A DNA stretch of 64,000 nucleotides. Source: Patescibacteria group bacterium (GTDB lineage: Bacteria; Patescibacteriota; Minisyncoccia; CAIUEV01; JAHKAQ01). Below the pieces are notes generated by a model. The model saw only the letters and a program-made list of their open reading frames with translations, was not told the origin of the DNA and ran no database searches. Location of the stretch: contig JAYEHH010000032.1 of NCBI GenBank assembly GCA_034716235.1, positions 370-64,369 of the forward strand, given 5' to 3'. The position numbers and the translations under genes were made by a program. Position 1 is the stretch's first letter; each line of letters opens with the position of its first letter. Shown piece by piece: positions 21,665-58,736 of this stretch.

Positions 21665-21679
21665 TTGGCGAACAGCCAA

Positions 21680-21726
<47 letters not shown>

Positions 21727-22722: not shown

Positions 22723-22914
22723 GAACAATTATAGTTATTGCTGACGTTCACCGGGGCTTCAGAGATTGGCGTTAACCGCTCTCGTTAACCTTCCGGCACT
22801 GGTCAGGGGTCAGCCCCTATACATCCCCTTACGGGTTAGCAGGGACCTATGTTTTTGATAAACAGTCGCCCGGAGTCTTTAGCTGTGGCCGACGAATGTA
22901 CTGAATGGTGAATC

Positions 22915-23213: not shown

Positions 23214-24453
23214 TTCACCATTCAGTACACTGTCGGCAGGCCTTATCCCGAAGTTACGGCCGCTATTTTGCCGAGTTCCTTAACGAAGGTTCTCCCGTTC
23301 ACCTTGGGCTACTCGCCCTACCCACCTGTGTTGGTTTAAGTACGGATTAAACCTAAATATTTTCACAAAGCTTTTCCAGGAAGTCTATTCGCTCGAATCT
23401 GTTCCACTTGCGTTTCACATTTTTCCGCACCTTTTAAAAAGATGAAGAAACGTCAAACCATTAAGACGCTCAAGTTAGCTGACTTCGCACTTTGCTACAA
23501 CTTAGATTTAAGTCAAGGAATATTAACCTTGTGCCCATCGACTACGCTTTTCAGCCTCGCCTTAGGACCGACTAACCCTGGGCTGATTATCATCGCCCAG
23601 GAAACCTCAGGTTTTTGGTGGAAAGGAATCTAACCTTTCTTGCGGTTACTCATACCAACATTCTCTCTTCCATTAGCTCCACTAAAACTCACATTTTAGC
23701 TTCACAGCGCATGGAATGTTCTCCTACCCCGCCATACTCTAAAAAGAATATGACAGCCATAGTTTCGGTACTATGTTTGAGCCCCATTATATCTTCGGCG
23801 CGGAACGACTAGACTAGTGAGCTGTTACGCACTCTTTAAAGGAATGGCTGCTTCTAAGCCAACCTTCTAGCTGTTTAAGAAGTTCTACATCCTTTTCCAC
23901 TTAACATAGATTAGGGACCTTAACTAATGGTCTGGGCTGTTTCCCTTTCGTAAATGAAGCTTAGCCCCCACTTACTGACTCGTTAGACTTGTATATTGGA
24001 ATTCGGAGTTTGGTTGAGTGCCCTAGACAAAAGTCATGGATACTCATTCAGTGCTCTACCTCCAATACCAACTATCTAACGGCTATACCTAGATATATTT
24101 CGGAGAAAACCAGCTATCGCCGAGTTCGATTAGCATTTCACCTCTAACCACAGCTCATCCCAGCGTGTTGAACGGCGCTTGGGTGCGGACCTCCACCGCT
24201 TTTTAAGGCGGCTTCATCCTGGCCATGGCTAGCTCACTCGGCTTCGGGTCTGACCCTAACGACAGGGGGCGCCACTTAAGACTCGCTTTCGCTGCGGCTC
24301 TTCCGCCTAGACGGATTAACCAAGCCGTTAAAATCAACTCGTTGGTTCGTTCTGCAAAAAGCACGCGGTCACCGGCTCAAAAAAAACTTGAGCGGGCTCC
24401 CACTCGTTGTAAGCACACGGTTTCAGAAACTATTTCACTTCCCTTTCGGGATA

Positions 24454-24495
<42 letters not shown>

Positions 24496-25401
24496 AAAGT
24501 GTATTTAGTCTTACCGGGTTAGTACCGGCAAATTCACCTGGAATTTCTCTAGTTCCAGGCTACTCAAGATAAAATAACTCAGAGTGATTAATTGTTTTCG
24601 CCTACAGGACTTTTACCTTCTAAGGTAAGCCTTTCCAGGCATTTTTGGCTAACAACTAATGCTTTTTACTCTGCCAATACTAAAAGTTGTAAAAGCACAA
24701 TAAAATTATACTTTTACAATTTCAGTTCGGACGCTATTGAACTTATTACCCTCAGTAAAAACTGAGTTTGGACTTTTCCCCGTTCGCTCGCCGCTACTTA
24801 GGGAATAACTATTGTTGTTTTTTCCTTCGGCTACTAAGATGTTTCAATTCGCCGAGTATGCTTTTTACTCCTATGTATTCAGAGTAAAATTCTATTCAAA
24901 AATGAATAGAGGGTTTCCCCATTCGGAAATTCCCGGATCAAAGCTTGCTTGACAGCTCCCCGAGACTTTTCGCAGCCTGCTACGCCCTTCATCGCCACTT
25001 TGTACCAAGGCATCCACCATATGCTCTTATAACCACAATTTATTAGTGTTTTTAGCTAATTCACAAAGATTATTTGTAAATTAATTGCAATCACTTAAAT
25101 ACCATTTTGCCTAATAATTGTTTTTAACCACAATCTCCAAACAACTATTATTAAAATAAATTGTTAAAGTCCATTATGTGGCCTAAAAGGTAGTTTTTAA
25201 AAATAAAAACCGCTTTTCAAGCCGCTAATTCTTTAAAATAAATTAGACCCAAAAACTAGCCAAGGAACAGCTCTTAATAAATTCTCAATAAAATAATACT
25301 ATAAAAATTATTATAGCAATAAATAAGTTAGTGTCAACTGAATGTAAACCAACCTCTAATCTCTAAATTAATAAATAGACAATTCAGAGCTTATAATTTC
25401 T

Positions 25402-25865: not shown

Positions 25866-27485
<1,620 letters not shown>

Positions 27486-38530: not shown

Positions 38531-38598
38531 GCAGGGATTCTGAGCAAATTTAAAAGACTCGAACATAATTGGTCATTCCCGTCTCCGCGGGAATGACA
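38531..38598. repeat. Repeat copy R3 in the divergent hpf/uvrA promoter region: gcagggattctgagcaaatttaaaag module plus palindrome ggtcattcccgtctccgcgggaatgacat
   Basis: ATTCCC-N8-GGGAAT palindrome; the module matches 1121-1145. Confidence 0.7.
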
Positions 38599-38768
38599 TA
38601 TCTTAAGGTTTTTTCTAGATATACCAAGATTCCTGTCGAAATTTATCTTATACTTGATGTGGGGAAGGAAAAAACATGCTGTAATAAAACTTTTTTAAAT
38701 TTCCAGAAAAATAAGCTCTACCACTAATTTTTGAAAAATGATAACTTTTATGTTATAATAACCAAGTT

Positions 38769-41582: not shown

Positions 41583-41613
41583 AGTTTTTGATTATTATGG
41601 TACAGTAGAAATG

Positions 41614-41843
41614 AGTTCATAAAGTGACTAGCTACTAAGTAGCTAGTCATTCCCGTGCCTGTCTGCCGTGAGGTAGAAAGGCAGGAATCCCGGTACGTCT
41701 AGACAATTCCTTGCCAAGTTAGTTTCTTCTAAATTTGCTTGGGACCCCCGCTGGAGTTTATCCCGTACTTGATACGGGGCGGGAATGACAGGGGAAAAAG
41801 CTGGTTGGAGTTTTACCCAGTAGATGTGGGACGGGAATGACCA
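41614..41843. repeat. Repeat copy R4 (mosaic, partly inverted relative to R1) immediately 3' of uvrA
   Basis: Begins with gttcataaagt and the palindrome gactagctacttagtagctagtc. Modules cccgccccgtatcaagtacgggataaactccagcggg and cgtctagacgtaccgggattcc are in inverse orientation to R1; the gggaatgacaggggaaaaagctgg module is direct. Confidence 0.75.
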
Positions 41844-41894
41844 TAAACTAGTTACAATCAATGCCTTTTAAAAACAAAAAATAATTAATTAACC

Positions 41895-45047: not shown

Positions 45048-45150
45048 AGTTCATAAAGTTTGTAAAGTTCGTAAAGTTTTCAGGGTTAAGAATAGCGAGA
45101 TAAAGACTTGATAACTTTATAAACTTTACAGACTTTTCACTTTCTAACTT
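45039..45150. repeat. Repeat copy R5: 9-mer word array gttcataaa/gtttgtaaa/gttcgtaaa x4, then the inverted partner ctttataaactttacag and a ctttctaactttataacc module
   Basis: The same words recur at 41611, 46231, 46394-46428, 56143 and 1021-1040. Confidence 0.7.
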
Positions 45151-45161
45151 TATAACCTCTC

Positions 45162-46238
45162 GTGAATATCTTATCCATCGAAACATCTTGTGATGAAACT
45201 GCTTTCGCTATTGGAGCCGTGCAAAACGGTCATTTTAAGCTTTTAGCAAACACCGTCTCATCTCAAGTCAAAGTTCATCAAAAATTCGGTGGTGTGGTTC
45301 CTAATTTATCTGCCAGAGAACACTTAAAAAATTTCAAGCCACTGCTAGATAAAACATTGACTCAAGCTGGTATTCCCCTCAAAGAAATTGATTGTTTTAG
45401 TGTTGCTCCCGGTCCGGGACTTATTCCGGCTCTTTTAGTAGGAACATCTATCGCTAAAACTTTAGCCTTTTATCATCAGAAACCCTTAGTTCCCATTCAT
45501 CATTTAGAAGGACACACTTACGCTACTTGGCTAAAGAAAAATGGAGAGTTGAGAGATGACATTGCTTTTCCCGCTTTGGTTTTAATAGTTTCCGGAGGAC
45601 ATACCCAACTAATGCTGATGCAAGACCATTTGCATTACGAAATACTCGGCAGAACTTTGGACGATGCAGTTGGAGAAGCTTTTGACAAAGTGGCTAGAAT
45701 TTTAGAATTAGGTTACCCCGGAGGTCCTTTGATTGAAAAAATAGCTCAAAAAGGTAATCCAGAAAAGTTTCAACTTCCTAGACCGATGATCAATTCTGAT
45801 AATTTAGATTTTAGTTTCTCGGGATTAAAAACTGCCGTCCTTTATGTCGTGAAAGAATATCTTGAGAAAAAGGAAATGGTCCCGACCGCTGATATGGCCG
45901 CTTCTTTTGAGCAAGCCGTTGTTGATACCTTAATAGCCAAAACGCAAAAAGCGGTTAATACTTACAACCCTCAGTCATTAATTTTGGCAGGAGGAGTAGC
46001 TGCTAATACAAAAATAAGGGAAGCTTTTATTGAAATTGCTCAGAAACGAAACAAAGCAAAAGAATACTCAAATTACTATCCCCTACAAGCTTACGTCCCA
46101 GAATTAAAATTCTGCGGTGACAACGCTGCCATGCAATTACCGGCAGTATTTTTTAGATTAGAAAAGTATGGGAAGAAGAAGTATCGGGAGGGGTGGAGAG
46201 ATGTGGAGGCTGAGGCTAATTGGGGGCTCAGTTCATAA
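45162..46238 (+). CDS. tsaD: tRNA N6-threonylcarbamoyladenosine synthase TsaD (Kae1/YgjD)
   Basis: MNILSIETSCDETAFAI N-terminus and conserved His pairs (HHLEGH); 358 aa. Confidence 0.9.
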   Translation: MNILSIETSCDETAFAIGAVQNGHFKLLANTVSSQVKVHQKFGGVVPNLSAREHLKNFKPLLDKTLTQAGIPLKEIDCFSVAPGPGLIPALLVGTSIAKTLAFYHQKPLVPIHHLEGHTYATWLKKNGELRDDIAFPALVLIVSGGHTQLMLMQDHLHYEILGRTLDDAVGEAFDKVARILELGYPGGPLIEKIAQKGNPEKFQLPRPMINSDNLDFSFSGLKTAVLYVVKEYLEKKEMVPTADMAASFEQAVVDTLIAKTQKAVNTYNPQSLILAGGVAANTKIREAFIEIAQKRNKAKEYSNYYPLQAYVPELKFCGDNAAMQLPAVFFRLEKYGKKKYREGWRDVEAEANWGLSS

Positions 46239-46515
46239 AGTTGAAAAGTTTAGATAATTGATAATTGACAATGGATAATTGATAATTAATGAATAATGAA
46301 TATCTTAAATAATTTTTCACCCAGAGGGTGATCCGCCTTCGGCGAGACAAGCCAGCCAGCCTCGCCGAGTCTAGGCGGGCCTCTGGCTGGCAATTAAGGA
46401 ATACTTTATAAACTTTACGAACCTTCTAACTTAACCATGAAGGCTTTATTAAATGGGTGGGAAGTGGTTTAATAAAAAGAGATAGAGAATAAGAATTATA
46501 TAATTAATTACTTAT
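46229..46515. repeat. Repeat copy R6 at the left boundary of the defense island
   Basis: Contains the gttcataaagt word, the ataattgacaatggataattgataat module, the inverted GGCTGGCTGG/tcgccgaaggcgg module (matches 1245-1285), ctttataaactttacgaaccttctaactt, then ttattaaatgggtgggaagtggtttaat...agaattatataattaattacttat. Confidence 0.75.
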
Positions 46516-46525
46516 ATTTAAAATT

Positions 46526-48343
46526 ATGCCAAATTATTTCGTCAATCAAAGAAATATTAGTGCGTTACTTCAAAACATTAAGGACGAAGATATTGTAATC
46601 CCAGAAATTCAGAGACCTTTTGTTTGGGAGAGTAAAAAAGTTCGTAATCTTATGGACTCATTGTATCAGGAATTTCCAATAGGTTATATTATTACATGGA
46701 AAAATCCAAATATAAGACTAAAAAATGGAAGAATGAGCGAGGGAAAACAAGTTATAATAGATGGACAACAAAGAATTACCGCTTTAATGGCTGCGATCTT
46801 GGGACGAGAAATTATAGACAAAGAGTATCAAAAAAAGAGGATTCGGATTTCCTTTAATCCATTGAAAGAAAAGTTTGAAACATTAACTCCTGTTATTGAA
46901 AAAAATAGTGAATGGATAAGCGATATTTCAGAATTTTTTAAAACTAGAAATAATATTTTTAATTTTACTGCTAATTTTTGTAAAAAAAATAATTTTACCG
47001 AAAAACAAAAAATCAAGACTCAGCAAAGTCTAACAAAATTACTAAACATGGAGGATAAGTTTATTGGAATTATTGAGCTTGATGCAAATTTAGATATTGA
47101 TGATGTAACGGAAATATTTGTTAGAATTAATGATGCTGGGACTCCCCTTTCACAAGCAGATTTTGCAATGAGTAAAATTGCCTCATACGAACCAACATCA
47201 GACCATTTGTTTGGAGTGAATTTAAGAAAGTCTATTGATTATTTTGCTCATCTATCTCAAACACCACATTTTCTTGAAGATATTGGAAGAAACGATAAAG
47301 AGTTTAGCCGAACAGAATATTTGCTAAAAATGAAATGGGCCGGGAAGGAATTGGATAATATATATAATCCAAACTATAAGGATATTTTAAGAGTAAGTTT
47401 CATTAAGGAATTTAATAGAGGGAAAATTAGCGATCTTGTGAAGCTTTTATCTGGACAAAATTTTAAAACAAGAAATTATGATCAAAAAATACAAGAGAAA
47501 TCATTCTTGGCTTTAAAAAATGGAGTCCTTGACTTTATAAATGAAAATCATTTTAAGAAATTCCTTATTATTTTACAATCAGCTGGAATTATTGATTCAA
47601 AACTTATTAATTCACAGAGCGTTCTAAATTTTGCCTATATTGTCTATTTAAAACTTAGAAAAGATGGAATGGCAAATAATTTAATTGGGAAATATACAAA
47701 AAAATGGCTTGTTCTTTCAATTTTGACTGAAAGATATTCAGCCTCACCAGAATCTACGATGGATAAGGATATTAAAGATATTAATAAATATGGAATTAAA
47801 AAAGTTATTGCAAAGATTGAAGAGGCGGACATGTCATCAACTTATTGGAATATTGGACTTGTACAAAATTTAAACAGGGCGATAATTTCAAGCCCATTTT
47901 TAAGCCTCTTTTTTATAGCACAGATATGCTCTAAGGATAAAGCTTTATTCTCCGAATCGGTTTTAATCGATCAACTCGTTAGCATAAAAGGAGACGTCCA
48001 TCATATTTTCCCCAAAAATTATCTTCAAAAAGCAGGGTTTGGAATAAGTAAATATAATCAAATTGCAAATTTTGTTTATTTACAACAAGAAGTAAATATA
48101 ACAATAGGAGATAAACCACCAGGACAATATTTTAGCCGAGCATTGAATCAATGTGATAATAAAACTTTGGATAGTGGAAGTATTGGAGAAATTACAGACA
48201 AGAAAAAATTGATAAAAAATTTAGAAATAAATTCTATCCCAACTGATATTTTTGAAATGGATATTACTAATTATGATGAATTTTTAGAAAAAAGACGGAA
48301 ATTAATGGCAAAGAAAATTGAAAAGTTTTATAAAAGTTTATAG
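46526..48343 (+). CDS. GmrSD-like type IV (modification-dependent) restriction endonuclease: N-terminal DUF262 (ParB-like NTPase) plus C-terminal DUF1524 (His-Me/HNH-like nuclease)
   Basis: PEIQRPFVW...IIDGQQRITAL (DGQQR hallmark of DUF262); C-terminal DVHHIFPKNY...N...N (DUF1524 signature); 605 aa. Confidence 0.75.
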   Translation: MPNYFVNQRNISALLQNIKDEDIVIPEIQRPFVWESKKVRNLMDSLYQEFPIGYIITWKNPNIRLKNGRMSEGKQVIIDGQQRITALMAAILGREIIDKEYQKKRIRISFNPLKEKFETLTPVIEKNSEWISDISEFFKTRNNIFNFTANFCKKNNFTEKQKIKTQQSLTKLLNMEDKFIGIIELDANLDIDDVTEIFVRINDAGTPLSQADFAMSKIASYEPTSDHLFGVNLRKSIDYFAHLSQTPHFLEDIGRNDKEFSRTEYLLKMKWAGKELDNIYNPNYKDILRVSFIKEFNRGKISDLVKLLSGQNFKTRNYDQKIQEKSFLALKNGVLDFINENHFKKFLIILQSAGIIDSKLINSQSVLNFAYIVYLKLRKDGMANNLIGKYTKKWLVLSILTERYSASPESTMDKDIKDINKYGIKKVIAKIEEADMSSTYWNIGLVQNLNRAIISSPFLSLFFIAQICSKDKALFSESVLIDQLVSIKGDVHHIFPKNYLQKAGFGISKYNQIANFVYLQQEVNITIGDKPPGQYFSRALNQCDNKTLDSGSIGEITDKKKLIKNLEINSIPTDIFEMDITNYDEFLEKRRKLMAKKIEKFYKSL

Positions 48344-48375
48344 TAATAATTTTCTAATCAGAGAGCAGAAAGCTC

Positions 48376-48777
48376 TTACTCCTTATCAGGCAATCTATCA
48401 TCTTTTTTTCTTTGATAATAAGTATTCTTATTTAAACATCTGTTTATAATATTTTCCATGTGCCAATAAGTGTAATTGCCATATCTAAAATAAATCTGTT
48501 TTGTTTTGTAAAAATAATCCTCGTATCCTGACTGGTCAATGTAATTAGCAAGCTCTAAGTATAATTTGTTATCAACTTTTTCTTGGACAATATATTCATG
48601 GGGCCATGTTTTAGCATAAGTTTTTGCAGGCGTCCAATTAGAATTTTTAATAAATAATTTTAAATTATTGGGGAGTAGTACTCTATCAAACATCGCCTTT
48701 ATTTTTTTACTATGAAGAAATATTAAAACCTTTTTGATTGTAGCTATAGTATTGTTGATTACTTTAGTTTCATCCAT
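48376..48777 (-). CDS. Hypothetical aromatic-rich small protein, convergent with the GmrSD-like gene
   Basis: 133-aa ORF, no recognised motif. Confidence 0.35.
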   Translation of the reverse strand: MDETKVINNTIATIKKVLIFLHSKKIKAMFDRVLLPNNLKLFIKNSNWTPAKTYAKTWPHEYIVQEKVDNKLYLELANYIDQSGYEDYFYKTKQIYFRYGNYTYWHMENIINRCLNKNTYYQRKKDDRLPDKE

Positions 48778-48930
48778 GCTGAATCTAAAGTGGATTCCAT
48801 AAGTTGCATATTCTTTTAATCAAAAATACATTATTTATTTCAATAAGTATAGTAAGTTATAATTTAAAATAGCTGAACAGAATTCTTAATTTATAATCTA
48901 GAATTTGTAATCTAAAATCTCTCAAGACTT

Positions 48931-48970
48931 GATTAAATGGGTAGAAAGTGGCTTAATGGGGAGGAGAATT
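48931..48970. repeat. Repeat copy R7 (gattaaatgggtagaaagtggcttaatggggagg module)
   Basis: Near-identical to 55962-55997 and similar to 46447-46476. Confidence 0.7.
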
Positions 48971-49095
48971 GCATGGTTAATTGGTTATCAATGAAAATGC
49001 TATAAAGTTTTTATTAAGATTATAATTAAGAGAATAATTCAGGTAGGGTTTTTTGCAAAAATTAATGTGCTTTTTAATTATTTTATATAAATTCA

Positions 49096-52014
49096 ATGAG
49101 AGTTAATATCAAGGAAATCAGGAGAATAATTAAATCTGATGTTATTAAGCCTAGAATTGAAGAATATTTACAGAAAAGAAAAAGTGGAGACGAGCAGCAA
49201 TGGAACGAGGAATATAAATGGGATCCAAAAATATTGCCTGCAACACATAAGGAATTTATCAAGGAAAGAGACATTCTTAAAAAAATTGAAATTCTTCAAA
49301 AAAATAATCCAAACGAAGGATCCTTTGTGAGTTATATGGACTTGGACGATCTCAATAAATTTGCTAAGGAAAAAACAAAGCAAGCCACAAAGTTGATGGA
49401 AAACTTATTGAATGGAAAAAAGAATATTGCTAAACGCATTGATTATTTTAGGGATGAGACGAAAAAAGTGGATGAAAAAATTAAATTAGGAACACCCTTA
49501 TTTGGTTACATTATGGCGGTATTCAATTCCAGTAAATATCCAACTTATAAAAATTCAACCTTTATGGCTCTCAAAAAGCTCATTGGAAAAAGACAAGAAT
49601 GGAGTTCTATGAGTGTTGGCGAGAAATATCAAACATTTACTGACCTGTGCCATGAAATGGGCAAATTGCTGAAGCCAGAACTTGAAACTGTAAATATCAG
49701 AGGTATTGAGGTCAAGCCAGGAAGGACTGCTCTGGATGGTCAAGACTTTTTCTATATTCTTGAAGATCGTTATAATAGAGAGAGATATTTCCCCGAACTT
49801 GTTAAATTTCTTGAACAAGCCAAGGCAAGCAATCTTACAACAAAGCAATACCGAAAGGATTATATGAATTGTAAAGTGAGGATAAGTTTTGGAAAAGTAA
49901 GCTCTGCACAAACACCCTGGATTAGTTTTTTATCCGGTGACAATAAATTACAGAAGGGAATTTATCCAGTCTTTCTTTTTTATAAAAGTATAAATAAATT
50001 ATTTCTAGCATATGGTATAAGTGAAATAAGTGAACCCGAACAAATTTGGAACATTGTTGGAAAAGAAACAATTGAAGATTATTTTATTGAAAATTTCAAC
50101 TCGGAGCCAGAGAGATATGGCAGTTCTTATGTTTATAAAGTATACGATGTGAAAAACATTGATAATTTAAATCAAGAACAAATGGAAAATGACTTGAAAA
50201 ACATAATTAATGAATATAAAAAACAACTTGAAGAAACTCCAAAAATTCAATACTGGACAATTTCTCCGGGGGAAGATGCAAAGCACTGGGAGGAGTTCTA
50301 TCAAAAAGGGATCATTGGAGTCGGCTGGGATAAAACAAAAGATCTCTTACAATATAAAAATAAAAAAGAAATTCAAAAGGTTGCGAAAAACTTATTTGGA
50401 TTAAAAACTAATGCCAGCAATACTGCCCAAGCTTGTTTGGATTTTTCTAGAACAATGAGAATTGGGGATATTTTAATTGTCAAAAAGGGAATTCATGAAT
50501 TGGTCGGCTATGGAAAGGTAACTTCAGATTATATTTATGATGCAAGGAGGAAGACATATAAACACATACGAAATGTGATGTGGATTAAAAAGGGAAATTG
50601 GAAGATAGATAAAGAGATTATTCATCCTGCATTAAAAACTTTAACTAACATAACTCCGTATGAAGGTTATGCCCAAGAATTATTGGGCATAATGGACGAA
50701 AGTAATATTGATGGAAAAAATTACTGGTGGATTAATGCAAATCCAAAAATTTGGAATTTAACAGAGGCGGAAGTCGGTTCCAAACAAATATATACAAGCC
50801 ATAATGAGGCCAAGAATCCCAGAAGAATTTATAGTTATTTTAAAGAGGTTAAGCCGGGCGACATTATGTTTGGATATATAACAAGTCCTGACAAACAAAT
50901 TACTTCAATATGCAAAATAACCAAAGGGTTATATGAGAACAAAGAGGGGGAAGTGATTGAATTTGAAAAAACTGAGACTTTACAAAATCCAATTTTGTGG
51001 AATGAATTGAAAAATGAAGAAAGTTTGAAAAATTGCGAACCAATTAAGAACAATCAAGGAAGTTTGTTTAAAATAAGCAAAGAAGAATATGAAACCATTA
51101 GATATTTGATTGATGAGAAAAATATTTTCACGAAAGAAAAAATTGAAAAATATATAAAAAAGGATGCTCTAGACAAATTATTTATTTCAGAAAATGAATT
51201 TGATAATATAGCCCAAAATATTGAAAGAAACAAAAATATCATTCTGCAAGGCCCTCCCGGAGTTGGCAAAACTTTTCTTGCAAAAAGGTTGGCTTATTAT
51301 TTGATTGGATACAAAGACGTAAACAAGGTACAATCTATCCAATTTCATCAATCATATTCATATGAAGATTTCATGCAAGGTTACAGGCCCAATGAAAAAG
51401 GAAAATTTGATCTTGTTAATGGAATATTTTTCAGATTTTGTCAGAAAGCTAAAAATGATCCAAACAATAAGTATTTCTTCTTGATAGATGAAATAAATAG
51501 AGGAAATCTGAGCAAAATTTTTGGTGAATTAATGATGCTTATTGAAAAAGATAAACGGGGTAAAGATTTTGCTATACCTTTAACATATTCCCAAGATGAC
51601 AGAGAAACATTTTATGTGCCAGAAAATGTTCATTTGATTGGGACTATGAACACAGCTGATAAATCACTTGCGATGGTAGACTATGCTTTGCGAAGAAGAT
51701 TTAATTTTATTTTTCTGAAACCAAAATTTAATAACAGCTTTAGTTCATTCCTAGAAAATATGGGAGTTAAAAAGATTATTATTAAAGCGATAGTTGAAAA
51801 AATAAGCAAACTAAATGAGATGATAATTAATGATGATAATAATCTTGGAAAAGGATATCAAATTGGTCATAGTTTTTTCTGTCCTCAGAGAAAAAGTAAA
51901 TATGACGAAGAATGGTTTAAGAATATTGTCAAATACGAAATTGAACCATTGCTCGAGGAGTATTGGTTTGATAGTGAGAAAAAATTTAATGAAGCGAAGA
52001 ATTTATTAAACTGA
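49096..52014 (+). CDS. mcrB: McrB-like GTP-specific AAA+ motor with a long N-terminal extension: DUF3578-like (MrcB-N) module plus two EVE/PUA-like modules
   Basis: AAA+/GTPase motifs GPPGVGKTF, FFLIDEINRGN, GTMNTADKS (NTAD signature of McrB), RRRF. N-terminal VRISFGKVSSAQTPWISFLSGDNKLQKGIYPVFLFY fits the DUF3578 pattern. An EVE-like segment runs YWWINANPKIW...GDIMFGYITSPDKQITSICKI...; an earlier similar module runs YWTISPGEDAKHWEEF...GDILIVKKG. Confidence 0.8.
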   Translation: MRVNIKEIRRIIKSDVIKPRIEEYLQKRKSGDEQQWNEEYKWDPKILPATHKEFIKERDILKKIEILQKNNPNEGSFVSYMDLDDLNKFAKEKTKQATKLMENLLNGKKNIAKRIDYFRDETKKVDEKIKLGTPLFGYIMAVFNSSKYPTYKNSTFMALKKLIGKRQEWSSMSVGEKYQTFTDLCHEMGKLLKPELETVNIRGIEVKPGRTALDGQDFFYILEDRYNRERYFPELVKFLEQAKASNLTTKQYRKDYMNCKVRISFGKVSSAQTPWISFLSGDNKLQKGIYPVFLFYKSINKLFLAYGISEISEPEQIWNIVGKETIEDYFIENFNSEPERYGSSYVYKVYDVKNIDNLNQEQMENDLKNIINEYKKQLEETPKIQYWTISPGEDAKHWEEFYQKGIIGVGWDKTKDLLQYKNKKEIQKVAKNLFGLKTNASNTAQACLDFSRTMRIGDILIVKKGIHELVGYGKVTSDYIYDARRKTYKHIRNVMWIKKGNWKIDKEIIHPALKTLTNITPYEGYAQELLGIMDESNIDGKNYWWINANPKIWNLTEAEVGSKQIYTSHNEAKNPRRIYSYFKEVKPGDIMFGYITSPDKQITSICKITKGLYENKEGEVIEFEKTETLQNPILWNELKNEESLKNCEPIKNNQGSLFKISKEEYETIRYLIDEKNIFTKEKIEKYIKKDALDKLFISENEFDNIAQNIERNKNIILQGPPGVGKTFLAKRLAYYLIGYKDVNKVQSIQFHQSYSYEDFMQGYRPNEKGKFDLVNGIFFRFCQKAKNDPNNKYFFLIDEINRGNLSKIFGELMMLIEKDKRGKDFAIPLTYSQDDRETFYVPENVHLIGTMNTADKSLAMVDYALRRRFNFIFLKPKFNNSFSSFLENMGVKKIIIKAIVEKISKLNEMIINDDNNLGKGYQIGHSFFCPQRKSKYDEEWFKNIVKYEIEPLLEEYWFDSEKKFNEAKNLLN

Positions 52015-52019
52015 TTTTT

Positions 52020-53057
52020 ATGGAGATACCTATAATAAATATATATTACCTACTTTGTTATGCTTGGGATAAACTTGAAGAAAAAGATGTTGTTAACGTA
52101 AAAGAAGAAGATCACACTAAGTTACTTGATCTTTTTGCAAAGATATTAATTAACGGAATGAATCATCTAATCAGGAAAGGATTGGACAGAAATTACATTG
52201 ATATCAAAGAAGATTCAAAGAGAATTAAGGGAAAGATTAATTTCAATGAAACACTGAAAAGGAACTTGTTGGTACGATGTGAAATTAGTTGCGAATTCGA
52301 CGATTTTAGTTACAACATTCTTCACAACAGAATTATTAAAACAGTGATTGGAGGATTAGTTAGAAATGATGAGGTGGATCAGGAGCTGAGGGACGAATTG
52401 AATAAAATCTATCGATTATTGAAAGAGATTGATGAGATAAGGCTTTCCTCAAAAATATTTAATGCTGTAAAATTAAACAGAAATAATTACTTTTATGATT
52501 TTCTGATCAAGGTATGTAGGCTGATATATGAAAATTATTTAATCACGGAAGAAACGGGCAAGGGGAAATTTAGAGATTTTATAAGAGACGAAGTAAAAAT
52601 GAGAATGCTCTTCGAAGATTTTGTTAGGAATTTTTATAGAAAAGAACAAAACGAATTTTCTGTAACAAGGGAATTGATTGCATGGAATGTTAAGGCTGAG
52701 AATGATGAAGATATGAGTTATATGCCGAGAATGGAAACCGATATATCGCTAAAATCAAAAAGTAAAAAAATAATAGTTGATACAAAATATTATAAAGAGG
52801 CCATTAAGGGTCAATATAAGAATAAAGAAAAGTTAATATCCAATAATTTATATCAAATGTTTGCCTACATAAATAATATAGAAAACAAAGGAGGTCTAAA
52901 TAAAAAATGTACTGGAATATTACTTTACCCAACAGTTAAAAAAGATTTGGATTTAAAATATAAAATACCAAATCATAACTTACAAATTAAAACAATAAAT
53001 CTAAATCAAGAATGGAAAAAAATTCATAAAGACTTATTAAGTGTAATTATGACTTGA
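52020..53057 (+). CDS. mcrC: McrC-like PD-(D/E)xK nuclease partner of McrB
   Basis: Starts 5 nt after the mcrB stop; McrC signature D-x-K in IIVDTKYYK with upstream acidic residues and QMFAY. Confidence 0.7.
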   Translation: MEIPIINIYYLLCYAWDKLEEKDVVNVKEEDHTKLLDLFAKILINGMNHLIRKGLDRNYIDIKEDSKRIKGKINFNETLKRNLLVRCEISCEFDDFSYNILHNRIIKTVIGGLVRNDEVDQELRDELNKIYRLLKEIDEIRLSSKIFNAVKLNRNNYFYDFLIKVCRLIYENYLITEETGKGKFRDFIRDEVKMRMLFEDFVRNFYRKEQNEFSVTRELIAWNVKAENDEDMSYMPRMETDISLKSKSKKIIVDTKYYKEAIKGQYKNKEKLISNNLYQMFAYINNIENKGGLNKKCTGILLYPTVKKDLDLKYKIPNHNLQIKTINLNQEWKKIHKDLLSVIMT

Positions 53058-53131
53058 AAATCCCTATGTTTATAAATTTTAAAAACAATTTAGAATAGAA
53101 GATAATCATCTATTTATATTTATATAACCCA

Positions 53132-54349
53132 ATGCAACAATTTTCTCATTCAAAATTACAAACCTATGAAAGATGTCCCCTGCAATATAAGCTCCAATAC
53201 CTCACCAATCTAAAGCCGGAGCAGGAAGAGACAATAGAAGCCTTTGTGGGTAGCCGGGTCCATGAGACTCTGGAACTTCTTTATCGTGATCTACTGCGAA
53301 CAAAACTAAATTCTTTAGCTGATCTTTTAAAGTTCTATGATAAAATTTGGAGAGTAAACTGGAGCAATGACATAGTTATCAATAATAAAGAATTTAAAAA
53401 GAAACATTACTTTGATCTTGGAAAAAAATGTATTAAAAATTATTATGAAAAATATAGCCCTTTTGATCAGGATCAAACAATTGGAATTGAGAAGAGGATT
53501 AATTTACAATGGGGAGACATTGGAATAGTGGGATACATTGACCGTTTAGCTAGAGACAGCCAGGGTATTTATTCTATCCATGATTATAAAACGGGTGCCA
53601 TCATGGAACAGAAGTACGCAGATCAAGATCGTCAGCTAGCCTTGTATTCAATTGCCGTTAAGGAAAACTTTAGAGAGGCCAAAGAGGTAAGGTTAATTTG
53701 GCATTTTGTAGCTTATGGCGAAGATGTTATCTCGAAACGGACAAATAAGGAATTGGCTAAGCTAAAAAATGAAATGCTGTCCCTTATTGAAGAAATTAAT
53801 CTTGCAGAAAAAGAAGATAATTTTCCAGCCAAAGAAACTAAATGTGAATGGTGCGGATATTGGCAGTATTGCCCAAAGAAAAAGCATTTATTCAAAACAG
53901 AAAAACTTCCAAAAAATAAATACCTACAAGATAGTGGAGTAAAACTAGCAAAAAAGTATATTAATTTATCACAACAAAGAACTGTCATAAACAAACGAGC
54001 TAAAACTAAGGGGGAAATAATTAAGCAAGAAATGCTAAAGATTCAAGAAGCTATCCTAAAATATACCCAGAAACATAAAATAGATGTCTTGGCGGGAGAA
54101 AAAATGCTTGTAGCTATTAATAAGAGTAAGAACTATACCTTCCCTACAAAAACTACTGACATTGAAAAATACACTGAATTGGAAAATTTATTGAAAAAAA
54201 GTAAGTACTGGAACGGTGTATCTTCCGTCAATGCCCAAAAAGTTAGTCAATTATTGGAAGATGATGGGATTGACAGTAGATTAAAGCAGAAAATTATTGC
54301 CCTTGCTCCACTTGAAGAATCTACTAACTTATCAATCAGAAAAAAGTAA
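53132..54349 (+). CDS. Cas4/RecB-like PD-(D/E)xK nuclease with 4-Cys cluster and ~150-aa C-terminal extension
   Basis: N-terminal SKLQTYERCPLQYKLQY, GYIDRL, IHDYKTG (D..D-x-K), QLALYSIA (QxxxY), CEWCGYWQYC. Confidence 0.7.
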   Translation: MQQFSHSKLQTYERCPLQYKLQYLTNLKPEQEETIEAFVGSRVHETLELLYRDLLRTKLNSLADLLKFYDKIWRVNWSNDIVINNKEFKKKHYFDLGKKCIKNYYEKYSPFDQDQTIGIEKRINLQWGDIGIVGYIDRLARDSQGIYSIHDYKTGAIMEQKYADQDRQLALYSIAVKENFREAKEVRLIWHFVAYGEDVISKRTNKELAKLKNEMLSLIEEINLAEKEDNFPAKETKCEWCGYWQYCPKKKHLFKTEKLPKNKYLQDSGVKLAKKYINLSQQRTVINKRAKTKGEIIKQEMLKIQEAILKYTQKHKIDVLAGEKMLVAINKSKNYTFPTKTTDIEKYTELENLLKKSKYWNGVSSVNAQKVSQLLEDDGIDSRLKQKIIALAPLEESTNLSIRKK

Positions 54350-54910
54350 ATGGAGCTTCTAGAGAAAACCATCAAGCATATAGAAAAAAAGAAAAGGGAT
54401 AATTCTAATAAAAAAGAGCTATTGGCAAACAACAGACATCCTAAATCTGCCCATTATTATAAAAAGGAATGGTCATTTATTGAGTTTGTACCAGCTAGAG
54501 AAAATATTACCTATCAGTTACAGTATTTAGAGTATATGACCAATTTATACAATGACTACCAAATGTATTTAACGATTGAATCTTTACATTGCAAGAACAT
54601 GATGATTACCATTGCCTCAATAATGGAATGTGCCCTCTATGACCTCTTGTATCAGTTAGCCAGAAAAAGGTCAGATATTGGTTTTGATGAAAGAGAAGAT
54701 TTTTTAGCAATGATTGATTTAGGGTTTCGGGGAGGTTTACTTAATGAACAAATGAAAAATTTGCTACATGAGCTTCGGAAAGTTAGAAATTTTGTGCATA
54801 TTTCTAATTTGGAGCATAAAGAATACGAAGCTTATGATATTGAGCAAGTAAACAACTATATTATACTTTTAGATAATTTTAAGGATAGAGTTAGGGAGAA
54901 GATTAAATGA
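54350..54910 (+). CDS. Hypothetical protein translationally coupled (TAAATG) to the upstream nuclease; possible HEPN-like Rx4-6H motif
   Basis: C-terminal LHELRKVRNFVHI fits R-x6-H; the start codon abuts the upstream stop. Confidence 0.3.
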   Translation: MELLEKTIKHIEKKKRDNSNKKELLANNRHPKSAHYYKKEWSFIEFVPARENITYQLQYLEYMTNLYNDYQMYLTIESLHCKNMMITIASIMECALYDLLYQLARKRSDIGFDEREDFLAMIDLGFRGGLLNEQMKNLLHELRKVRNFVHISNLEHKEYEAYDIEQVNNYIILLDNFKDRVREKIK

Positions 54911-54950
54911 AAATAATTAGGGTTATACTCCCCTGCTGCATTCTTTCTTA

Positions 54951-54976
54951 AAAGAATTACGTAATTAATTACTTAC
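54951..54976. repeat. Repeat copy R8 (aagaattacgtaattaattacttacc module)
   Basis: Identical 26-mer at 56013-56038; variant at 46491-46515. Confidence 0.7.
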
Positions 54977-55031
54977 CAGTAACCCCACTTCCAAAAACAA
55001 TTCTAAAATAACATAGATTAATAGAATCTGA

Positions 55032-55922
55032 ATGCCTCCAAAACCTAAAAAAATAGATGTTGATGTTAATGATTTTTTCAGAAGAATTGTTAGATTAAAA
55101 AAGAAAAAGAAATTTGCAAATTTCTTAAAATTTATTAAACGAGTACCAAAACAATCCCCTTTAAATGACTCTCTCGTATTCATTCAAAATTGTAATTGTT
55201 TTTATTATGCAACAGCTAAGCAATGGAAGAATAAATTTGGAAGAAAAGTAAAAGATGATGCGCAACCATTGATCGTATTAGTTCCATTTGGTCCCGTTAT
55301 GTTCGTATATGATATTAAGGATACCAAGGGAAAATCTCTAGATAAAAAAAATTTGTTTTGGTGGAAAGAAAAAGAAGGATATTTTCACGAAAGTATTTAT
55401 TTGAACACAGCCAATAACTGTAAGAATGTTGGGATAGATTATCGTATTGGTAAAAAAGAACAGTATATATTTAAAGAGGGTCTACAGACTTTCGGATATG
55501 CTGGAAAAAATATAAATAATAACTTACGTAAAATTGAACTACATCCTAAATATCAAAATGGAATCAATATAAAAGAAACTTATGGAGTATTATGCCATGA
55601 GTTGGCTCATCATTTGCTTGGGCATTTGGGAGAAATAAAAATTGAGATACCAGTGCAGATGAGTTTATTTTCATCTAAGGTCAACGTCCGTCACAAAAAA
55701 ATAGCTCCGAGTGGTAGAGAGTCTATTGATGATAATATTAAAGAGCTTGAAGCCGAATTAACTGCTTGGATAGTATTTTCCTGTTGGGGTATGGAAAAAA
55801 ACTCAGAAGCATACATGGCAAATTGGCTGATAGATAGCAATGATGCAAAAGAAATAAACTATCCCTTAGTTTTTAAGGTAGCTGGAACGATTAAGCGAAT
55901 GGCGCTCGGTAAAATTGCGTAA
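55032..55922 (+). CDS. ImmA/IrrE-type (M78-like) HExxH zinc metallopeptidase with N-terminal region weakly resembling the ArdC-N ssDNA-binding domain
   Basis: CHELAHHLLGH (HExxH...H); N-terminal FYYATAKQWKNKFGRKVKDDAQPLIVL resembles the ArdC-N TFKQA..GG.VRKGEKG..VV consensus. Confidence 0.5.
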   Translation: MPPKPKKIDVDVNDFFRRIVRLKKKKKFANFLKFIKRVPKQSPLNDSLVFIQNCNCFYYATAKQWKNKFGRKVKDDAQPLIVLVPFGPVMFVYDIKDTKGKSLDKKNLFWWKEKEGYFHESIYLNTANNCKNVGIDYRIGKKEQYIFKEGLQTFGYAGKNINNNLRKIELHPKYQNGINIKETYGVLCHELAHHLLGHLGEIKIEIPVQMSLFSSKVNVRHKKIAPSGRESIDDNIKELEAELTAWIVFSCWGMEKNSEAYMANWLIDSNDAKEINYPLVFKVAGTIKRMALGKIA

Positions 55923-55961
55923 AGAAATATATCAGTACAATTATCCCAAACATACTATTTG

Positions 55962-56038
55962 GCTTGATTAAATGGGTAGAAAGTGGCTTAATGGGGAGGG
56001 AAATAGAGAAAAAGAATTACGTAATTAATTACTTACCA
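55962..56038. repeat. Repeat copy R9 (both R7 and R8 modules) at the right edge of the island
   Basis: gattaaatgggtagaaagtggcttaatggggagg...aagaattacgtaattaattacttacc. Confidence 0.75.
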
Positions 56039-56142
56039 CCACTAAAACAATAATCTATTCAAAATAATAATTCAAAATAATAATTCAAAATACCTACAGG
56101 ACTGGAAAAATATAGTTGCTAATGCTAATCTAAAACTAAGTT

Positions 56143-56350
56143 CGTAAAGTATAACTTCTAACGTTTCGTCTAGGCGTCCCGGGATTTCCGTCCGGCATGC
56201 GCCAGATTACATTTTCCTGCCTACCGGCAGGCAGGAAGCTTTAGCGAAGACTGGTCATCCCCTGGATGAAAAATTGAAAATTAGAAATTGAAAATTATAA
56301 TAAAGTATTCCTTAATTGAAAATTGTGAATTGAAAATTGAAAATTCTCTT
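56143..56350. repeat. Repeat copy R10 upstream of valS: gttcgtaaagt word, cgtctaggcgtcccgggatttccg, exact ttttcctgcctaccggcaggcagg module, then a ttgaaaat word array
   Basis: The 24-mer ttttcctgcctaccggcaggcagg is identical to 1189-1212. Confidence 0.75.
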
Positions 56351-56351
56351 T

Positions 56352-58736
56352 ATGTCCAAACTTCTCACCGAAAAATATAACTTTGAGCGAATAGAAAACC
56401 AATGGAAAAAATTCTGGGAGGATAAACAATTATTTAAGTTTCGCTACAACAACCAGAAACCATTCTTTGTTGTGGACACTCCTCCCCCTTATGTTTCAGC
56501 CGATCATCTGCATGCCGGCCATATCATGTCTTATGCTCAAGCCGAATTTATTGTGCGCTACAAAAGAATGCGGGGCTATAATGTCTTCTACCCAATGGGC
56601 TTTGACGACAATGGCTTACCCACCGAGAGATTTGTAGAAAAGAAATATAATCTAAATAAGGGCAAAATAAAACGCTCAGAATTTATTAAAATTTGTTTGA
56701 AAGAGACTAAAAAGGGTTCCCTGGCTTACAAAAAGTTATGGAACGATTTAGGAATTTCAGTTGATTGGAGCAAAACTTACAGCACCATTAGCCCCTTGGC
56801 TGTAAAAGTTTCTCAGCGATCAATTATCGATCTCTATAAAAAGAAAGCTCTTTATAGAGGTGAATCTCCAATTTTATGGTGCCCTTCCTGTCGAACAGCT
56901 ATCGCTCAAGCCGATCTAGAAGACGTAGAAATAGAATCTCAAATGAATTACCTAAAATTCAAATCTGGCAAGAAAGGCTTAATCATAGCTACAACCAGAC
57001 CAGAGCTTCTTCCTGCTTGCGTAGCTCTCTATATTAATCCTGGAGATAAACGATATACCAACCTAGTAGGCAAGAAAGCGCAGGTACCACTTTTTAAACG
57101 TTCCGTTCCCATAAAAACAAGCTCGGAAGTGGTTATGGATAAAGGCACTGGAATAATGATGGTTTGCACTTGGGGTGATCAAGAAGATTTAGCTAAATGG
57201 AAAACCGATAAATTAGACACTCGACATATCTTAGAACAAGACGGTCGATTAAATAAATTGGGTGGCAAATATCAGGGATTGAAAATAAAAGTTGCTCGTC
57301 AGCAAATTATTGATGATCTTAAAAAGGGTGATTATTTGATTAAGCAAGAATCAATTAAGCATTCCGTGAATGTTCATGAAAGATGTGGCACTCCTGTAGA
57401 ATTGATTCCCAGCAAGCAATGGTTTATTAGAATTATCAATTTAAAAAAGAAATGGTTGGAATATAAAGATAAATTAAATTGGCATCCGGCTAGAATGGCC
57501 AAAGATTATCAGATGTGGGTGGATTCTCTAAAATGGGACTGGTGTGTCTCAAGACAGCGTTATTACGGGGTCCCCTTCCCCCTTTGGTATTGTGCTAAAT
57601 GCAAAACTCCAATTTTTGCTACCGAAAAAGATTTGCCGGTCAATCCTATAGAAGAAGCTCCTTCAATTAAAAAATGTCCTAAATGTGGTCACACTAAATT
57701 TGAACCAGAAACCGATGTTCTAGATACATGGGCAACTTCTTCCTGCACCCCTTTCCTCCTAAAAGAATTAGTTAGAGATGAAAAAGTAAAAGAAAAACTT
57801 TTTCCAGCTACTTTAAGGCCAAACGCTTTTGAAATTATAAGAACTTGGGACTTTTATTCAATTGTTAAAAGCCACTATCATTTTGGCAAATTACCCTTTA
57901 AAAATATTATGATTTCCGGACATGGGCAGGATGAGCAGGGAAGAAAATTTTCCAAAAGATTAAACAATTACGACCCTTCTGATAAATTACTTAAAAATTG
58001 GGGGGCGGATGCTATTAGATATTGGGCTACTGGATCTTCTTTGGGACAAAATTTACGATTTAACCCTAAAGAAGTTAAAAAAGGTAAAAGAACTACCACT
58101 AAGCTTTGGAATGTAGGTAGATTTTTAGCAATTAATTCCGAGGATTCTACTTTAAAAAACATTAAAACCGCTACTACTCTAGAATATGCTGACATTTGGA
58201 TTATTGAGGAATTAAATAAAACAATTCAGCAAGTAACTGAAGCTTTTGAAAATTATGCTTACGCTAAAGCCAAAAACGAGTTAGATTCTTTTTTCTGGTC
58301 TAAATTAGCCGATTATTACATTGAATTTATCAAATATCGTCTTAATGGTGACAAAAAAGAGTCCCGAGATATGGCTCAAACTACTCTTTCCACCGTCTTC
58401 CTGTCTGTTTTAAAAATGTATGCTCCCCTCCTACCTTTTATAACTGAAGAGATCTACCAAGATTTATTTAAAAAAACCGAAGCCAGGGAGAGCATTCATA
58501 TTAGCGATTGGCCTAAAATTATAAAAATTAAAACATCCACCGATATTAAAGATTTTCAAGAAGCTCTAGATGCCATTAACGAAATCAGAAAGTACAAGAC
58601 TACTCAGGGAATATCTTTAGGATTTGAGTTAGAAGAATACTCCTTAAAGACCAAAGTTAACCTTCCCAAATATCAAGAACTCATTAAAAATGCCATTAAG
58701 GTAAAACAATTATTGCCCGAAATTAAAAGTTCTTGA
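56352..58736 (+). CDS. valS: Valyl-tRNA synthetase (class Ia aaRS). The alternative in-frame ATG at 56337 lies inside the word repeat.
   Basis: [14 protein letters not shown] (HIGH), IVRYKRMRG (ValRS-like), editing-domain [24 protein letters not shown] resembling E. coli ValRS [37 protein letters not shown], KFSKR (KMSKS variant). Confidence 0.7.
   Translation: [794 protein letters not shown]

Follow-up and report, generated by a model that had tools for sequence, protein, structure and literature searches.

Results

The tsaD-valS interval

The window analysed here is a 64,000-nt stretch of contig JAYEHH010000032.1 (positions 370 to 64,369; assembly GCA_034716235.1), chromosomal DNA of a Patescibacteria (candidate phyla radiation, CPR) bacterium with a guanine-plus-cytosine (GC) content of ~34% and the locus tag U9Q72. 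Between the housekeeping genes tsaD (45162-46238) and valS (56352-58736) it carries a defence island of seven open reading frames (ORFs), most units of which are preceded by a repeat that we call A.B, a directional composite leader of ~78 nt whose part A is promoter-like and whose part B is a palindromic box (AATTACGTAATTAATTAC). We describe the island, its alternative forms in co-existing strains and the probable role of the leader in shuffling its cassettes. The genes of the interval are as follows.

45162-46238, plus strand: tsaD, left conserved anchor (Pfam TsaD, 5e-89)
46526-48343, plus strand: GmrSD-like (DUF262) type IV restriction protein, cassette 1 (Pfam GmrSD_N, 4.8e-33; PADLOC HEC-05)
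48376-48777, minus strand: orphan ORF of 133 aa, antisense to the array
49096-52014, plus strand: McrB, cassette 2 (MrcB_N 239-376, PDC-S02-like 385-533, EVE 542-669, AAA_5 GTPase domain)
52020-53057, plus strand: McrC (Pfam McrBC PF10117, 1.6e-42; NCBIfam McrC equivalog, 361 bits, cutoff 338)
53132-54349, plus strand: PD-(D/E)XK RecB/Cas4-like nuclease of 405 aa, conserved anchor (Pfam PDDEXK_1, 1.7e-32)
54350-54910, plus strand: HEPN-fold protein of 186 aa, always paired with the PD-(D/E)XK gene
55032-55922, plus strand: HExxH protein of 296 aa (HELAHHLLGH motif)
56352-58736, plus strand: valS, right conserved anchor (NCBIfam NF009687, 970 bits, cutoff 738)

The island is AT-richer than its flanks (GC 0.26-0.33 vs 0.35-0.38). 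A first-pass annotation, made from the letters of the sequence, had listed six cargo genes here; all of them are present where it had placed them, but the ORFs number seven. Its DUF262/DUF1524 nuclease is supported in the DUF262 part, and PADLOC HEC-05 matches the protein in three stretches, whereas GmrSD_C/DUF1524 was not detected by Pfam at E<=0.01. The 133-aa ORF is indeed an orphan, without a family match in Pfam, PADLOC or NCBIfam. It has homologues in L088 (69% aa identity) and, after a HEPN gene, in L150-L153 (76% nt identity; contigs used for comparison are designated by L and a number). The McrBC system with a multi-reader McrB stands as proposed: an McrB AAA+ GTPase (AAA_5, 5.8e-24, with PADLOC support; NCBIfam McrB, 413 bits over residues 678-965) with an N-terminal DNA reader region, here extended (MrcB_N, PDC-S02-like and EVE), is paired with an McrC nuclease subunit that scores above its equivalog cutoff. 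The Cas4-like nuclease and its HEPN-like neighbour also keep their identities, the 186-aa protein having the four-helix up-and-down HEPN fold and the conserved Rx4-6H motif, although the pair behaves as a conserved anchor and not as the exchangeable cargo it had been taken for. The PD-(D/E)XK protein has no close solved relative by sequence. For the 296-aa protein, which the first-pass annotation took to be ImmA/ArdC-N-like, the sequence has the HExxH motif and the sole profile match is a weak one to SprT-like (7.8e-4; 19.7 bits, below the cutoff of 25.6), and nothing matched it in PADLOC, NCBIfam or PDB sequences. The statement that no integrase or transposase is present was borne out, in that Pfam, PADLOC and NCBIfam revealed no recombinase, transposase or methyltransferase domain in the island ORFs, nor was a recombinase or transposase found in 10 further ORFs of the window. 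The window holds no tRNA genes that might serve as integration targets.

A directional leader in front of the cassettes

Where a single repeat family had been proposed, two kinds of repeat occur: the A.B leader, confined to the island, and a mosaic distributed over the whole window. Module A, CTT(T/G)ATTAAAT-N7-AAGTGG(T/C)TTAAT, has three copies in the window against 0.02 expected by chance, and module B, GAATTACGTAATTAATTACTTAC, has five matches against 0.01 expected; the repeats seen in the first pass are thus real. B is composed of overlapping 12-nt palindromes, AATTACGTAATT and GTAATTAATTAC. A sequence-only model, R1, was built from 25 foreign A.B copies of Joint Genome Institute (JGI) metagenomes and none from the window. 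It returned four significant matches in the window (E = 5e-18, 7.5e-13, 4e-5 and 6.5e-5), all of them in the island and on the plus strand, while the next-best match had E = 0.05 and the remaining 54 kb gave no significant match. R1 also recovers the expected copies in L008, L009 and L011. The window copies are listed below.

46444-46517, plus strand: A.B copy 1, full length, diverged (R1 45 bits, E = 7.5e-13, model positions 1-78)
48928-48990, plus strand: A.B copy 2, intact A with a degenerate B, AGAATTGCATGGTTAATTGGTTA (R1 E = 4.4e-5 for 48928-48973)
54948-54978, plus strand: B box copy 3, without A (R1 E = 6.5e-5; 29/29 nt identical to 56010-56038)
55963-56038, plus strand: A.B copy 4, the best copy, 'empty' in this haplotype (R1 61.6 bits, E = 5.2e-18)

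Copy 1 ends 9 nt before the ATG of the GmrSD-like gene, copy 2 is located 106 nt upstream of mcrB and copy 3 lies 54 nt upstream of the 296-aa gene. Positions 48928-48964 of copy 2 are identical to 55963-55999 of copy 4 (37/37 nt). Contrary to the claim that every inter-unit gap is filled, repeats occupy four of the six gaps; those between the GmrSD-like gene and the orphan (33 nt) and between McrC and the PD-(D/E)XK gene (74 nt) hold none.

Some further observations concern the B box and its surroundings. An ATGCC (Met-Pro) start is found in 2 of 44 window ORFs, both of them leader-preceded island genes (46526 and 55032), and again in unrelated first genes behind B elsewhere (L009 2220, L119 124, L079 1968, L129 ~7130), which raises the possibility that the conserved leader may extend through the start codon. 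The sole B-like site outside the island is a diverged palindromic box (TTACGTAATAAATTACGTAA) at 931-973; a minus-strand ORF (2-910; no family assigned) starts 28 nt downstream of it. B was also considered as a signal of the DNA-uptake type (DNA uptake sequence or uptake signal sequence) and rejected, the density of four copies per 64 kb, all in the island, being far too low.

Alternative cassettes in co-existing strains

Alternative forms of the locus came from two sources. L001 is a Logan contig of run SRR26901930, found by an exact-protein look-up of TsaD. A module-A pattern scan of GTDB species representatives returned two contigs only, L009 (JAYEHE010000174.1) and L011 (JAYEHE010000357.1), from the same population as the window. 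Both are deposited in a 'Candidatus Zixiibacteriota' metagenome-assembled genome (MAG), GCA_034659415.1; their GC content of 0.32-0.34 and the 100% identity of the shared parts with the window show clearly that they were misbinned there.

L001 and L009 are 100% identical to the window over 45049-46316, tsaD included, and unrelated to it beyond that point, where L001 carries a MutH-family gene. In L009 the 3' end of tsaD and the AT-rich array up to 46316 are followed by a B box, minus-strand genes for a MutH-like restriction endonuclease and an N6_N4 methyltransferase, and then by a degenerate A, a 139-nt segment equivalent to window 48826-48964, a full A.B and a gene for a 346-aa NucS_C-like nuclease. 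The contig rejoins the window at 53124, 8 nt before the ATG of the PD-(D/E)XK gene, its own copy of which is 96% identical. The alternative allele has a type II restriction-modification (R-M) system in place of the GmrSD-like gene and orphan, and a NucS-like nuclease in place of McrBC. The 139-nt segment (L009 2035-2173) matches the window at 99.3% though the flanking cassettes differ on both sides. On the other side of the array, L011 shows 100% identity over window 54852-56036, loses it directly behind B and continues into a PLD-SNF2 helicase, an Eco57I/TaqI_C-type methyltransferase, an RNase H-like gene, a 135-aa ORF, a further B and an AbrB-like pseudogene. The reported lack of a methyltransferase therefore holds for the window haplotype but not for the alternatives, since L001 and L009 carry an N4/N6 methyltransferase and L011 an Eco57I-like one. 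Two intergenic features mark the variable part.

48826-48927, no strand: spacer common to both haplotypes, directly upstream of leader copy 2
53124-53131, plus strand: right joint of the variable part, preceding the PD-(D/E)XK start codon; no repeat there

Every haplotype breakpoint (46316/7, 48826, 48964/5, 53124 and 56036/7) falls at the edge of a module, and the leftmost, 46316/46317, is inside the AT-rich array, not A.B. The gene order of the window is independently supported by L002 (46190-53303), L003 and L012 (49091-55992). L001 and L012 come from one sequencing run, and therefore both cassette types co-occur in one sample. Different defence cassettes occupy the tsaD-valS slot in co-existing strains. 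A chimeric assembly was considered for L001 and rejected, as its junction shares only ~12 nt and the independent assembly L009 has the same junction.

The comparison of this interval across relatives that the first-pass annotation had recommended yielded alternative cargo of several kinds: the R-M and NucS-like cassettes, extra cassettes, an empty slot and housekeeping genes. In L008 the B box is identical at 24/24 nt at the same place downstream of tsaD, with tsaD itself 72% identical at the DNA level. The flanks are conserved. L004 shares the order SecA-S30AE-UvrA-p121-ClpB-TsaD ... ValS-HSP20-VanW (53-68% aa identity) and has the slot filled by housekeeping genes, glmS-cofD-hexapeptide transferase, and L018 has tsaD, again in syntenic position, and valS 29 nt apart with the slot empty. 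Repeat-jointed exchange of cassettes in a fixed slot, as first proposed, is thus supported as regards the alternative cassettes and the repeats at joints, but the right joint is the PD-(D/E)XK start codon and carries no repeat.

The window valS is of the NF009687/PRK13208 type and the ValS at the same position in relatives is of the bacterial type (L004 14728-17406; L018 5283-7967). The window protein is 31% identical to that of L004 and 28% to that of L018, vs 53-68% for neighbouring genes. It looks like a xenologous replacement in place, and the variable segment may extend through valS.

A conserved inner anchor

The PD-(D/E)XK and HEPN genes are a conserved anchor inside the array and not variable cargo. 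In different contigs, at least five unrelated genes lie directly against the start codon of the PD-(D/E)XK gene (McrC, NucS-like, two GmrSD types and AIPR), with homology at this joint beginning ~8-12 nt before the ATG. Seven contigs with an identical 185-aa HEPN protein have five different upstream genes, all of them ending in AAATAAATCATC immediately before the ATG. Metagenome contigs typically break ~100 nt into the PD-(D/E)XK gene, which is the signature of a branching assembly graph. The PD-(D/E)XK family is 55-80% identical across Patescibacteria, and the pair 65-80% identical across CPR classes in which TsaD is only ~50% identical. In Magasanikbacteria and L146 the pair is again preceded by defence genes, there without A.B, and other lineages likewise have a B-like box behind the HEPN gene.

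The order GmrSD-type gene, 405-aa PD-(D/E)XK gene, HEPN-fold gene recurs in L150-L153, L092, L081, L146 (7685-11230) and L136 (7051-11805). The GmrSD-type gene directly abuts the PD-(D/E)XK gene in L146, an IS3 element lies between them in L136, and in the window the orphan and McrBC separate the GmrSD-like gene from the pair. The three genes may form a single system.

The leader in other populations

A scan of JGI metagenomes for the exact B 20-mer gave matches in at least 120 contigs. Among the matches listed, 35 copies have the full 78-nt A.B, on contigs with a GC content of 0.29-0.35, often several per contig and in one orientation, and 23 of the 26 A.B copies with a downstream ORF are co-directional with that ORF. 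Domains that are hallmarks of defence systems were detected in 14 of the 20 downstream proteins scanned within the same set (four GmrSD variants, type I HsdM/R/S, PLD-SNF2 with Eco57I-like methylases, AIPR, and AAA_21/AAA_15), and three more are nuclease- or Abi-like. A.B is associated with defence genes in other populations as well. Among the homologues of the window GmrSD-like gene, that of L092 (73% identical) stands directly behind an A.B leader and that of L150 (~79% nt identity) behind a B box. A gave no match in viral contigs; B gave two, both without useful context.

An alignment of 25 distinct copies shows CTTTATTAAAT and AAGTGGTTTAAT to be nearly invariant and exactly 7 variable nt apart. 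The geometry is TTTATT (or TTGATT), a 17-nt spacer with free variation in its central 7 nt, and an extended -10, TGgTTTAAT; from A to B the sequence is variable and rich in purines. By this geometry, part A would be a putative sigma70 promoter.

The NucS-like cassette has at least four different upstream neighbours. Behind A.B, L088 (~2600-2690, minus strand) and L110 (471-560) keep the initial 28 nt of the NucS-like gene (ATGCCACAAGATATAAAAATT..GGAAG), after which comes a different cassette of 360/363 aa; the remnant is a recombination scar.

A candidate controller of the B box

In 11 loci a 58-aa ORF starts 2-10 nt behind B. Pfam assigns it to MazE_antitoxin (AbrB/SpoVT fold, 2.9e-7), so that the candidate regulator is not of the helix-turn-helix (Xre) type. 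It heads genes for an N4/N6 methyltransferase with a MutH-like restriction endonuclease, or MmeI-like, MazG-like or RadC-like genes. B is most likely the operator of this AbrB/MazE-fold protein, a predicted DNA-binding protein. The layout known from R-M controllers, a small regulator gene preceded by its own palindromic box, is seen in these related loci only. The contigs with the 58-aa ORF behind B come from diverse CPR and include L019, L041, L046, L057, L078, L081 (6970-7146) and L102. In L011 (9475-9650) the AbrB-like ORF is a pseudogene, interrupted by two stop codons in frame (TGA and TAA).

Other CPR contigs, of higher GC content, carry B as a perfect 32-nt palindrome, GTAAGTAATTAATTAC-GTAATTAATTACTTAC, with 13-nt arms and a TACGTA spacer. 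Such palindromes were seen in four JGI loci (L018 10841-10872, L053 6233-6264, L123 3628-3659 and L126 4499-4530), adjoining a tRNA-Lys gene or terminator-like hairpins.

Mosaic repeats and other features of the window

The second kind of repeat is a mosaic of AT-rich 7-9-mer arrays (GTTCATAAAGT, GATAATT, GAAAATT) and GC-rich palindromic modules. It is found at 1000-1365, 27350-27460, 38570-38600, 41646-41850, 45050-45150, 46231-46430 and 56039-56351, gaps between housekeeping genes included. The parts that border the island are these.

46231-46316, no strand: AT-rich 7-9-mer array (GTTCATAAAGT and GATAATT units); related array at 1283-1327
46317-46392, no strand: GC-rich palindromic module, 98% complementary to 1234-1279 and 85% to 1332-1364
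56039-56351, no strand: mosaic before valS, with AT-rich tandem units at 56052-56090 and 56261-56351 and a GC-rich module at 56163-56260

The module at 46317-46392 is missing from the alternative haplotype. By sequence matches, the mosaic before valS resembles 1162-1213 and 27348-27400; the best sigma70-like match of a generic promoter scan, TTGAAA-16-TATAAT at 56274-56301, also lies there, upstream of valS. The dRS3 form ATTCCC-N8-GGGAAT has two matches in the window (27408 and 38575) and none within 46229-56350.

A 145-nt GC-rich element bounded by GTCATTCCCG...CGGGAATGAC is present as an inverted pair at 1081-1225 and 41646-41790 (88% complementary), and fragments of it recur at 27405-27444, 38570-38597 and 56163-56235. 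It looks like a miniature inverted-repeat transposable element (MITE) or a Neisseria intergenic mosaic element (NIME). The genes uvrA, clpB-like and tsaD each end inside a GTTCATAAAGT unit (41612-41625, 45040-45080 and 46231-46245), and their stop codons are therefore part of the AT-rich arrays.

Other genes of the window include the 23S rRNA gene, ParAB, ATP synthase, SecDF and RecO. An Rfam scan of the whole window returned the 23S rRNA and a group I intron only, with nothing at the repeats. The 23S rRNA gene (21341-25040) is ~775 nt longer than the Rfam model and contains the intron at 22377-22717.

Discussion

Proposed mechanism and alternatives

The tsaD-valS interval is, in our reading, a strain-variable locus in which A.B acts as a promoter-operator leader at the head of most cassettes and homologous recombination shuffles them; we give this a probability of about 0.6. 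A.B would be a portable leader placed in front of most defence units, with A predicted to have promoter activity and B to be bound by the AbrB-like protein. Because it is nearly identical between cassettes and between strains, it would offer short tracts of homology, to which the outer anchors (tsaD and valS) and the inner one (PD-(D/E)XK and HEPN) would add further homology. Homologous recombination with DNA of related strains could then replace, add or drop single cassettes, and no cassette would need a recombinase of its own, following the logic of the Neisseria minimal mobile element (MME) cassette by cassette. From the positions of the breakpoints, we infer that the repeats mediate the exchange. 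The first-pass annotation is partly confirmed in what it observed and partly supported in its interpretation.

The closest alternative is that A.B, or B alone, is a site-specific recombination site at which an unlinked recombinase inserts and excises cassettes in the style of integrons, of clusters of attC sites lacking integron-integrases (CALIN) or of pdif modules, which would make the locus a true gene-capture array. The perfect 32-nt form of B in L018, L053, L123 and L126, with its 13-nt arms and 6-nt TACGTA spacer, has the geometry of a tyrosine-recombinase core, of which A.B would retain one conserved and one degenerate arm. Copies within an array share a single orientation, haplotype identity stops exactly where the conserved arm ends (56036), the joints at the PD-(D/E)XK start are precise to a few nt, and many unrelated first genes begin with ATGCC directly behind B. 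Opposed to this are the lack of a recombinase in the island or the 10 other window ORFs, cassettes that lack two flanking sites (the right joint being a gene start without A or B), a distance from B to the start codon that ranges from 0 to ~290 nt, and the want of an attC-like R''/R' motif or a conserved hairpin (RNAalifold -5 kcal/mol, 0 compensatory pairs). We favour homologous over site-specific exchange because no recombinase was found, because the left breakpoint at 46316 lies outside A.B and because scars vary in length, as in the 28 nt of the NucS-like gene. The site-specific mechanism is doubtful; it keeps weight because the right joints are precise and the full 13-6-13 palindrome resembles a recombinase core. 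In its most elaborate form, A.B would belong to an unrecognised integron-like platform of Patescibacteria for the capture of defence genes, with insertion at the 13-6-13 B core on the left and at the joint of AAATAAATCATC with the ATG on the right, machinery devoted to the task (either an unlinked recombinase or the Cas4-like PD-(D/E)XK and HEPN pair, which is always adjacent) and an AbrB-fold controller that switches the whole array through the B boxes. We regard this as a speculative proposal, a shade less credible than the plain site-specific version.

The remaining alternatives give A.B a smaller part or another nature. The locus might be an ordinary horizontally acquired defence island whose repeats are neutral mosaic filler, found at breakpoints since repeats are where assemblies and alignments break. 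Many housekeeping gaps of the window do hold AT-rich arrays and GC-rich palindromic modules, many metagenome contigs end inside A.B or ~100 nt into the PD-(D/E)XK gene, and the hotspot is present without A.B in other lineages. This view is improbable given that the four significant R1 matches are confined to the island, the other 54 kb giving none, that A.B is directional relative to the downstream gene in 23 of 26 of the listed cases, and that B downstream of tsaD in L008 is identical at every position despite the divergence of tsaD. Moreover, the ~12 nt common at the L001 junction are too short for a chimera at k=31, and independent assemblies from different runs agree with each haplotype. 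Still less probable is a MITE-like non-autonomous transposable element, comparable to Correia elements, that carries an outward-facing promoter and has inserted repeatedly before defence genes. A.B is short and multi-copy, has a promoter-like block and adjoins MITE-like GC-rich GTCATTCCCG...CGGGAATGAC modules such as the 145-nt element at 1081-1225 and 41646-41790; against this, the alignment reveals neither terminal inverted repeats nor a target-site duplication, on its left the element passes gradually into variable AT-rich arrays, A and B are also found apart (48928, 54948, L009 1986, L011 9447), and no transposase is associated. A structured cis-regulatory RNA or a small RNA as the product of A.B, for which its conservation as a ~78-nt element in 5' leaders and the purine-rich stretch from A to B might speak, is very improbable: Rfam matches in the window are limited to rRNA and its intron, and RNAalifold gave -5 kcal/mol with 0 compensatory changes among 19 predicted pairs (25 sequences).

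Several points weigh against the preferred reading, in which homologous recombination shuffles cassettes headed by A.B. A tblastn search found no AbrB-like gene in the 64-kb window despite its four B boxes, and for regulation in trans the gene would have to lie in another part of the genome. Lineages without A.B (L136, L146) also have the defence hotspot upstream of the PD-(D/E)XK gene, so the leader is not required for variability. The right joints are very precise, unrelated genes ending within the same ~12 nt (AAATAAATCATC and then ATG), and plain homologous recombination does not explain the first arrival of new cassettes. As to the promoter, a generic sigma70 scan gave no excess of promoter-like sites over shuffled sequence (64 vs 53 +/- 8 expected) and is uninformative in such AT-rich DNA. 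The invariance of B in the JGI alignment is partly ascertainment, since the copies were found by an exact 20-mer. The contigs with alternative haplotypes are short-read assemblies, as is all the comparative evidence, and L009 and L011 come from a misbinned 'Zixiibacteriota' MAG. Finally, no contig other than that of the window shows the junction from A.B to valS, and exact searches for the ValS protein, with either of two possible starts, gave no independent support for it.

Significance

Patescibacteria make up a large share of bacterial diversity and have tiny genomes. To our knowledge they are mostly without clustered regularly interspaced short palindromic repeats (CRISPR), and we know of little on how they manage defence against phages. 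If the proposed reading is correct, at least one CPR lineage would keep its defence repertoire as a modular array whose units, each tagged by a leader, are exchanged between co-existing strains. With the leader as a handle ('guilt by leader'), uncultured bacteria could then be searched for new defence genes, in the way that attC sites serve for integron cassettes. A single small AbrB-fold regulator with its box could be a master switch of many unrelated defence systems, and the MME idea would reach from naturally competent pathogens to episymbiotic bacteria that are thought to scavenge DNA. The leader motif was not found in any paper in our literature search; the conserved leader of defence cassettes and its AbrB-type candidate controller appear to be undescribed.

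Comparison with known systems

Defence hotspots flanked by core genes are established in Proteobacteria and in prophages and their satellites, where, as here, diverse and strain-variable systems occupy a fixed position. Exchange in the Proteobacterial hotspots is usually tied to mobile elements, and we know of no leader or repeat shared at the boundaries of their systems, unlike in the array described here.

The B box and the 58-aa ORF resemble the C-box and C-protein of type II R-M systems, in which a gene for a small DNA-binding protein heads the operon and a palindromic box immediately precedes it (PMC2175313, PMC3874152). That arrangement is suited to autoregulation and delayed nuclease expression (PMC2175313, PMC3874152). 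The candidate here differs in its AbrB/MazE fold, which is not helix-turn-helix, and in that its gene is not in the window. The B box also precedes many unrelated cassettes (GmrSD, NucS-like, AIPR and type I R-M), which suggests one regulator for the whole array.

Integrons and CALIN share with this locus the co-oriented cassettes, the short conserved separator, the enrichment in defence genes and an order that is reshuffled between strains (bioRxiv 10.1101/2024.07.02.601686; PMC12614218). When the locus was examined for integron features, neither the island ORFs nor 10 others of the window showed an IntI or integrase domain, and the A.B consensus had neither RYYYAAC/GTTRRRY boxes nor an attC-type structure. 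Integron cassettes are promoterless, whereas the units here have a promoter-like block of their own; the cassettes are large multigene operons of up to ~7 kb, and the right joint is without a repeat.

The likeness to dRS3 and NIME (PMC3898611) lies in intergenic arrays of short, modular and reshuffled repeats, the window having GC-rich modules and two copies of the dRS3 form. The first-pass annotation had taken this analogy further, to dRS3-type repeats that bracket exchangeable cassettes, and there it fails. The copies of the dRS3 form lie outside the island, a directional promoter-like leader, rather than an inverted repeat that brackets the cassettes, forms the joints, terminal 6-bp inverted repeats are lacking in A.B, and no link to a filamentous-phage integrase was seen.

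Closest are the MMEs of Neisseria (Saunders & Snyder 2002, as defined in PMC3898611). These likewise have no mobility genes, and their exchange is attributed to homologous recombination in conserved flanks (PMC3898611). As in an MME, the locus is a slot between conserved genes that holds different whole-gene cassettes in different strains. It differs in its host, a Patescibacteria bacterium in which natural transformation is only presumed, and in the conserved PD-(D/E)XK and HEPN gene pair that sits within the array. It differs further in that the slot is subdivided and most cassettes share the same directional 78-nt leader, so that single cassettes would assort independently. By this comparison, the tsaD-valS locus may be regarded as an MME plan to which internal, directional joints have been added.

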